Positions 1 to 272 of a stretch of 17,615 nt of DNA are shown here, one piece after another. Position 1 is the first letter of the stretch; each line of letters begins with the position of its first letter. Under the pieces are notes generated by a model that was not told where the DNA came from, made no database searches, and saw only the letters and a list, made by a program, of their open reading frames with translations. The stretch is from Erysipelotrichaceae bacterium (lineage in GTDB: Bacteria; Bacillota_I; Bacilli_A; Erysipelotrichales; Erysipelotrichaceae): contig JAEDOA010000017.1 in the NCBI GenBank assembly GCA_016302195.1, positions 1 through 17,615 of the forward strand. Direction: 5' to 3'. A program made the position numbers and the translations under genes.

Positions 1-2
1 CT

Positions 3-272
3 AAGCAGGATATGCAGTTACAGGCACTTAAGGTTTACTTTGAGCAGTTACCTGCTATCGCAAAGGCTGTTGGTGATGGATACCAGAATGTTGATAAGAT
101 TATGATGTTTGGCGGCGAGAGTTCAAAACTTGCTGGTGACATTATGACCAATGTATCACAGGTATCTGAAGGATTAAGCGAATCGCTTGGTATTGATTTG
201 AAGTCATTACTTGCTGGCTTTATGGGCGGCAAAGTGGCTGGTCGTGATATCACTGTTAATGTAGAGGAATAA
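3..272 (+). CDS. 3' end of a gene running in from upstream of the window (5' partial). It encodes a flotillin/SPFH-family-like C-terminal tail.
   Basis: The frame is open to the window edge. The translation '...QLPAIAKAVGDGYQNVDKIMMFGGESSKLAGDIMTNVSQVSEGLSESLGIDLKSLLAGFMGG' follows the pattern of flotillin/YqiK/FloT C-termini (LPEIA..., ...VDKI.V.S.G.....K..G.V.., ..TG.DL..L). It also resembles the C-terminal tail of the MVP-like protein at 4950-7376. Confidence 0.5.
   Translation, partial: KQDMQLQALKVYFEQLPAIAKAVGDGYQNVDKIMMFGGESSKLAGDIMTNVSQVSEGLSESLGIDLKSLLAGFMGGKVAGRDITVNVEE

Follow-up and report, generated by a model that had tools for sequence, protein, structure and literature searches.

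The window analyzed here, the whole stretch of 17,615 nucleotides of contig JAEDOA010000017.1, begins inside a gene of which only the last codons are present, and it carries an MVP-like (vault-like) gene further downstream. The structures of flotillin cages were solved only in 2024. This locus raises the question of which protein ends at the edge of the window, whether its gene is complete in this genome, and how it is related to its MVP-like neighbor.

A predicted flotillin gene end at the edge of the window

Frame 3 of the plus strand is open from base 3 of the window, and translation places its TAA stop codon at positions 270–272. The product of positions 3–269 (+) is 89 residues long (KQDMQLQALKVYFEQLPAIAKAVGDGYQNVDKIMMFGGESSKLAGDIMTNVSQVSEGLSESLGIDLKSLLAGFMGGKVAGRDITVNVEE) and corresponds, by translation and homology, to the last 89 codons of a predicted flotillin-family gene of the FloT type. 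An antisense ORF (35–253) lies entirely within the conserved sense frame of this tail.

When the 89 residues were used as a protein query, 56 homologs were recovered, all of 155 aa or less, some of which had a Pfam Flot match or the JGI name 'flotillin'. One of them, the 147-aa protein P0001, ends in 89 residues identical to the window fragment. P0001 matched the NCBIfam FloT model (NF058507) over model positions 352–476 of 477 (E = 3.6e-11). Pfam Flot (PF15975) was matched in the family at 24.8 bits, just below the 27-bit gathering score. The window fragment gave no MVP Pfam match. PADLOC returned no match for the flotillin family, and there was no flotillin-specific PHROG; the sole PHROG match was a weak one to phrog_200 'lipoprotein' (4.6e-8), and the tail alone matched none. 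A scan of the window with Rfam and tRNA models found nothing.

In the flotillin cage, the wall helix is followed by a cap helix, one strand of a 44-stranded beta-barrel and a CTD helix (PMC11260169; the names of the sub-parts used here follow this paper). This region closes the narrow end of the cage and makes strong contacts between subunits (PMC11260169), and the C-terminus has a role in cage closure and oligomerization (PMC11260169, PMC12624060). The window fragment is the predicted counterpart of this cage-closing region. Judged from its homology to FLOT1 and from a model of low confidence, it would comprise the end of the cap helix (about nt 3–86, +), the segment NVDKIMMFGGE that would form a beta-barrel strand in the oligomer (about nt 87–119, +), the CTD helix (about nt 120–188, +), a putative short helix (about nt 198–230, +) and a putative variable C-terminal extension (nt 231–269, +). 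The AF2 monomer model of P0001 has helices at residues 3–86, 98–120 and 124–134, an order of helix, loop, helix and helix that agrees with the flotillin cage-closing region, albeit at low confidence (mean pLDDT of only 60.6). By this C-terminal region (cap helix, beta-strand and CTD), the fragment belongs to the flotillin family.

Full-length relatives are encoded by large phages

Related loci were retrieved at the DNA level from IMG/VR, metagenomes and GTDB genomes, complemented by tblastn. A total of 99 loci in 60 clusters were examined, the great majority of which had an intact flotillin ORF. About 55 of the 60 clusters, all on large phage contigs, encode an intact protein of about 485–530 aa. 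These full-length relatives start with a hydrophobic N-terminus behind a good ribosome-binding site and have, in this order, an N-terminal membrane anchor, an SPFH domain, a wall helix and a cap/tail. The wall helix is about 190 aa long, is rich in Ala, Glu and Lys, and aligns to that of FLOT1. The SPFH/Band_7 domain was present in about 55 of the 60 clusters and absent in L002/L080, L001 and L006/L007.

A profile built from 22 full-length relatives (A3) matched human flotillin-1 (9bq2_B) with E = 1.7e-100 and FLOT2 with about 1e-89 to 1e-91. The tail sub-alignment of the same profile (positions 342–480) matched residues 285–418 of FLOT1 with E = 3e-27. The near-complete protein of L003 has Pfam Band_7 (PF01145, 2.8e-22) and Flot matches. 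Bacterial FloT (Bacillus subtilis YuaG; NF058507) and flotillin-1/2 (PDB 9bq2, 9l3g) have the same domain order as the full-length phage relatives, which align end to end with the FloT model, and the window fragment aligns to the cage-closing region. Unlike these proteins, the phage family comes from large gut and rumen phages and includes some tail-only alleles. The full-length relative L026 covers FloT model positions 6–476 of 477 but its score of 240 bits lies below the 700-bit cut-off for equivalogs, which makes it a predicted homolog of FloT rather than an equivalog.

Taken together, the window at 3–272 holds what is, by homology, the 3' end of a phage-encoded FloT-type flotillin gene of the SPFH superfamily. 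The sequence-only reading had proposed a flotillin/SPFH-family gene end, and its choice of family was right, as judged from the FloT model, the FLOT1 tail, the JGI names and Pfam Flot. The motif it had pointed out (LPxIA...VDKI...G...GIDLKSLL) corresponds to invariant and nearly invariant columns in an alignment of 30 homologous tails.

The idea that the family consists of small proteins, all homologs being of 155 aa or less, was rejected, as the nucleotide-level searches gave full-length genes. The short matches in protein databases are contig-edge pieces, ORFs that follow a frameshift or a scaffold gap, and true truncations. L079 has a run of N (a scaffold gap) at about 890–900, inside its flotillin gene, and gene callers split this gene into products of 298 aa and 134 aa; it is partly because of such splitting that the protein database shows only short 'flotillin' pieces. 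L025 and L051 were also considered as truncations and rejected, since both are frameshifted full-length genes. TAG-to-Gln recoding, considered for the short matches and for the stop codon in L003, was rejected because the other genes of L003 and of the window are intact under code 11 and because in-frame stops are absent from more than 50 full-length relatives.

Purifying selection and damaged alleles

Judged from substitution counts, the flotillin tail is under purifying selection. Reading the alignment of the cluster with 95–98% nucleotide identity, we counted 16 synonymous changes, three non-synonymous changes and one nonsense change. The pairwise dN/dS of the tail was about 0.04–0.09 against more distant relatives and 0 to 0.27 between sequences whose upstream state is known; a value of up to 0.54, based on three differences, was obtained against one contig-edge sequence.

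The flotillin gene is disrupted in three relatives, by a nonsense codon in L003 and by frameshifts in L025 and L051. It thus seems to be dispensable and could also be damaged in this genome, in which case the window would hold a fragment of a decaying pseudogene with a nonsense codon or a frameshift upstream. The nonsense codon of L003 (L003:1188–1190, equivalent to window positions 6–8) is a CAG-to-TAG change in an otherwise intact gene of at least 483 codons. However, the window has CAG at this codon, and its 89 codons are free of defects. Disruptions affect only three of about 60 clusters, and some of these disruptions could stem from single-read assembly errors. With the tail also under strong purifying selection, we consider decay of this gene to be very unlikely. 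The contigs L004 and L005 start 4–5 nt downstream of the CAG/TAG site of L003; a mixture of both alleles in those samples may have broken the assembly at this point.

Full-length or tail-only in this genome

Sequences that are 95–98% identical to window positions 1–350 are of two kinds, long forms and tail-only forms. The nearest long forms are L099, with an uninterrupted flotillin ORF of at least 318 aa, L079, whose gene is interrupted only by the scaffold gap, and L003, with its TAG nonsense codon. The long and the tail-only forms become homologous only about 65 nt before window base 1, and because this informative junction precedes the window, the window by itself cannot tell the two kinds apart. 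We favor, with a probability of roughly 0.6, a flotillin gene that is full length in this genome, the SPFH part of which would lie outside the window.

This preference comes first from L099, a long form that is collinear with window positions 1–868 at 95.9% identity. The collinearity includes a 105-aa ORF downstream of flotillin that is missing in L080, L003, L079, L004 and L005. Relatives of this ORF were found in L099, in L100 (which starts inside the tail) and, in a different context, in L146/L147. Moreover, L118, L054, L038 and L010 have a full-length flotillin gene in front of a gene series that the window shares, namely (Thg1), MVP-like, RNA ligase, (HPr-like), a 97-aa ORF, AAA_33, metallophosphatase and (PhoH).

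Two observations speak against a full-length gene. The tail haplotype of the window groups with those of the tail-only L002 and L080 at six informative sites, and L080 is also collinear with window positions 803–1136. A less likely alternative is that this genome encodes a tail-only ORF of about 147 aa without an SPFH domain or a membrane anchor, as L002 and L080 do. In such an arrangement, a recombination junction would join the flotillin cap to a new 5' end directly after the HPr-like gene. The product might be no more than a neutral remnant, or it might function as a mini-protein that joins or caps flotillin cages, whether those of the host or those of a co-infecting phage.

L002 is 98.4% identical in nucleotides to window positions 1–321, and L080 reaches 96.9%; all coding differences between the window and L002 are synonymous. 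Both loci have a 147-aa ORF (L002:1933–2376 and L080:752–1195) whose ATG follows a ribosome-binding site (AAGGTGGA) at a distance of 7 nt. This ORF lies directly after a gene for a 76-aa HPr-like protein and an RNA ligase gene. In addition to sharing the window haplotype, L080 runs on into the ORF at 866–1189 of the window. Independent tail-only ORFs are found in L001 (10001–10456), after a PIF1 helicase gene, and in L006/L007 (L006:10001–10303), on a 167-kb contig; no SPFH-coding sequence was detected at these loci in any frame of the available sequence. Overall, 5'-truncated tail-only ORFs of 100–151 aa occur in three independent lineages, each time immediately behind an unrelated gene.

The window has its own RNA ligase gene (9072–10310) and HPr-like gene (10404–10649) downstream, so an upstream arrangement like that of L002 would require a second RNA ligase/HPr-like pair. 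Identity to these downstream copies is only 57% for the RNA ligase of L002 and 53% for its HPr-like protein, which indicates that L002 is a different phage sharing only a recently exchanged segment. The 105-aa ORF described above is likewise a feature shared with a long form, L099, and lacking in L080 and L003. Finally, searches baited with the tail can find only remnants that retain the tail, and the dS values to the nearest long forms are either near 0 or at saturation. For these two reasons, the existence of tail-only forms says nothing about selection for a stand-alone tail after truncation.

The sequence-only reading held that an upstream ORF without an SPFH domain would contradict it. 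Such an ORF is what L002 and L080 have, and these are close relatives; the corresponding junction in this genome lies outside the window, where we favor a full-length gene. Searches for the contig and its upstream sequence gave no match for window positions 1–4000 by megablast against GenBank phages, no match for an exact 36-mer of the window in IMG/VR, and no exact-protein match on record for the ORF at 373–690 or for an 86-aa ORF. The ORF at 866–1189 led only to a 1-kb contig.

Relation to the MVP-like gene

The ORF at 4950–7376 (+) encodes a protein of 808 aa with matches to Pfam MVP_shoulder (8.2e-19) and Band_7 (5.5e-4). By these matches, it is a genuine MVP homolog, related to the SPFH fold. 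Homologs with 35–37% identity over 98% of the length were also found in the GenBank entries LR756500, LR756501 and LR756503 (unannotated 'uncultured phage' sequences of 462–735 kb), and vault-like genes thus occur far outside this lineage of large phages from gut and rumen.

The flotillin fragment had been thought to resemble the last 60 aa of the MVP-like protein, and this similarity was not significant by any of three methods. BLASTP of the fragment against the MVP-like protein gave only E = 11, at a different place in that protein, and nothing at the C-terminus. An hhalign comparison of the two tails gave a probability of 0.2–0.5% (E = 0.12–0.28). Smith–Waterman alignments with the last 60, 100 and 150 aa had z-scores of 1.8–2.3, with 3–7% of shuffled sequences scoring as high. 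The resemblance of the two tails appears to be marginal and collinear, and no more than chance by ordinary standards. The sole part of the two proteins that aligned with hhalign was the SPFH region of flotillin with the shoulder region of the MVP-like protein (probability 63%, E = 7e-5, 17% identity).

The suggestion that the two proteins are paralogs or partners in one assembly fared differently for its two halves. As paralogs, they are related at the superfamily level, through the SPFH/shoulder alignment, and an identity of 17% does not fit a recent duplication. As partners, they are recurrent neighbors in diverged phages, where the MVP-like gene lies 0.1–4 kb downstream of a full-length flotillin gene in several cases. 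The distance is 0.1–0.5 kb, on the same strand, in L054, L038, L010, L011 and L009, and 6.5 kb in L083. Among dereplicated flotillin clusters with enough flanking sequence, 8/35 have an MVP-like gene within 10 kb and 27/35 have none in the available flanks. Conversely, a flotillin gene is located within 10 kb (0.4–8.4 kb) in 17/45 MVP-like loci of IMG/VR, and 28/45 have none in the available flanks, which extend 10 kb on both sides in 17 of these 28 loci, the remainder having a shorter flank on one or both sides. In adjacent pairs, the two genes are separated by a terminator hairpin and a TTGATT-N17-TATAAT promoter. The pairing is real but facultative, and the two genes are separate cassettes.

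In a stronger version of this suggestion, flotillin would be an obligate partner or a recent paralog of the MVP-like protein, and the two would build a single assembly, either membrane-associated or vault-like. The close spacing in the five phages named above and the 17 paired loci would fit this, as would the common SPFH superfamily, among whose complexes the vault is counted (PMC12624060). The same promoter motif also precedes the MVP-like gene of the window and the flotillin gene of L026, with a close variant (a TTGACA –35) in L054. On the other hand, most loci of either gene have no such neighbor in their available flanks, a terminator and a promoter separate even adjacent genes, and similarity is limited to one region. 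Co-location may simply reflect one variable region shared within one phage lineage, which explains the pairing at least as well as a physical partnership. We therefore regard an obligate partnership or a recent common origin as unlikely. Flotillin and the MVP-like protein are better described as probable distant superfamily relatives, neither of which appears to need the other nearby.

Transcription units and neighboring genes

The flotillin gene has a self-contained transcription end. A GC-rich, intrinsic-terminator-like hairpin (278–301, +) with a 10-bp stem and a 4-nt loop starts six bases after the flotillin stop codon and is followed by a T-run (302–311, +). The hairpin has a predicted RNA folding energy of –18 kcal/mol (z = –5.8; 0/200 shuffled sequences fold as well) and is kept in L002, L003, L004, L005, L079 and L080. 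A promoter-like motif, TTTATTTTTTATAAAAATTATGTTATAAT, at 301–329 (+) overlaps the T-run of the terminator and precedes the ORF at 373–690.

About seven copies of this motif are present in the window (301–329, 803–831, 3950–3978, 4867–4895, 8368–8396, 9011–9039 and 10658–10686), with the consensus TT[G/T]ATTTTTT.TAAAAATTAT..TATAAT. Exact matches to TTGATT-N17-TATAAT were observed four times, against 0.04 expected. The copy at 4867–4895 is the one before the MVP-like gene, while those at 301–329 and 803–831 each closely follow a terminator hairpin. Where the window loses its homology to L080, L003 and L099, the breaks coincide with these promoter-motif units. The flotillin gene lies in a shuffled region of independently transcribed accessory cassettes, often one that also holds an MVP-like gene. 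We take the terminator/promoter units to resemble the promoter-early stem-loop (PeSL) cassettes that have been proposed to drive modular shuffling in T4-type phages.

Two paralogous minus-strand genes, at 4011–4787 (–) and 7407–8135 (–), flank the MVP-like gene and encode proteins of 258 and 242 aa. The two proteins contain Cys-rich CxCDCGN repeats, have the C-terminal motif FDFYVNNKY(I/L)IE(F/Y)DG in common and gave no Pfam match. Their homologs occupy varying places in the related phages L003, L020, L058, L083 and L089, which suggests that they are mobile, homing-endonuclease-like genes.

A Thg1-like tRNA-His guanylyltransferase gene (1828–2643), the RNA ligase gene, the gene for the 81-aa HPr-like protein and an AAA_33 kinase-like gene (11026–11544) are spread over about 10 kb of the window; L003 has YqeY in addition. 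Taken together, the set resembles a toolkit for RNA or tRNA repair. In at least four diverged phages, the RNA ligase gene is followed by the HPr-like gene. The AAGGAG ribosome-binding sites, the lysin of the window with CHAP and PG_binding_1 domains, and the sortase gene of L001 suggest that the host is probably Gram-positive.

Discussion

Several phage-borne relatives of these proteins were already known, including phage flotillin and SPFH annotations (those of phage KIT04 and of Erwinia jumbo phages, and the JGI names) and phage MVPs. The 'flotillin family protein' of Vibrio phage KIT04 is likewise a phage-borne flotillin, with only 27% identity to the family described here, and papers on Erwinia jumbo phages mention SPFH proteins that are also phage-borne. 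The MVP homologs of Caudoviricetes phages ctOa11 and ct2Ri15 (bioRxiv 10.1101/2023.11.10.566534) look, by description only, like the 808-aa neighbor in the window. They are about 811 aa long and come from human-gut Caudoviricetes with probable Firmicutes hosts (bioRxiv 10.1101/2023.11.10.566534). Unlike these proteins, the flotillin fragment itself is not an MVP, and the words flotillin, SPFH and band 7 are absent from that 2023 preprint. What is mildly new here is the recurrent flotillin/MVP-like neighborhood and the tail-only alleles.

The HflK/C-FtsH cage is a further point of comparison. It is an SPFH cage with N-terminal transmembrane anchors and C-terminal closure, for which a model of client sequestration exists (PMC12624060). 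HflK/C differs in having a much shorter wall helix and in being a hetero-oligomer, and there was no sequence match to the phage protein beyond the SPFH domain. No experiments on any phage flotillin were found in the searchable literature, and the physiological role that we propose is a guess, drawn by analogy. By comparison with known SPFH complexes (PMC11260169, PMC12624060), the N-terminal helix of the full-length protein would insert into the host membrane during infection. Many subunits would then assemble into a domed cage that fences off a patch of membrane, with a roof formed by the residues encoded at window positions 3–269. Such a cage might serve an accessory role by stabilizing or reorganizing the host membrane, or by sequestering a client, e.g., a protease of the FtsH type, in the manner of HflK/C and bacterial flotillins. 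Organizing a membrane-bound phage process is a further candidate role.

Bolder scenarios can be drawn for these gut and rumen phages of roughly 130–190 kb, which probably infect Gram-positive hosts. A membrane-anchored flotillin and a vault-like MVP might cooperate as cage builders, for instance of a membrane-docked infection compartment, or the tail-only forms (147 aa in L002/L080; L001 and L006) might act as cap-only subunits that poison or re-program host flotillin cages. Taken jointly, we give these scenarios little chance of being right.

For annotation, the gene end in the window should be called flotillin, and an SPFH domain should not be assumed without the upstream sequence. This phage family would permit a test of whether the cap region alone interferes with cage assembly. 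Large phages that carry their own flotillin, often beside a vault-like protein, may offer compact and easily manipulated genes with which to ask what SPFH cages do in an infected bacterium.
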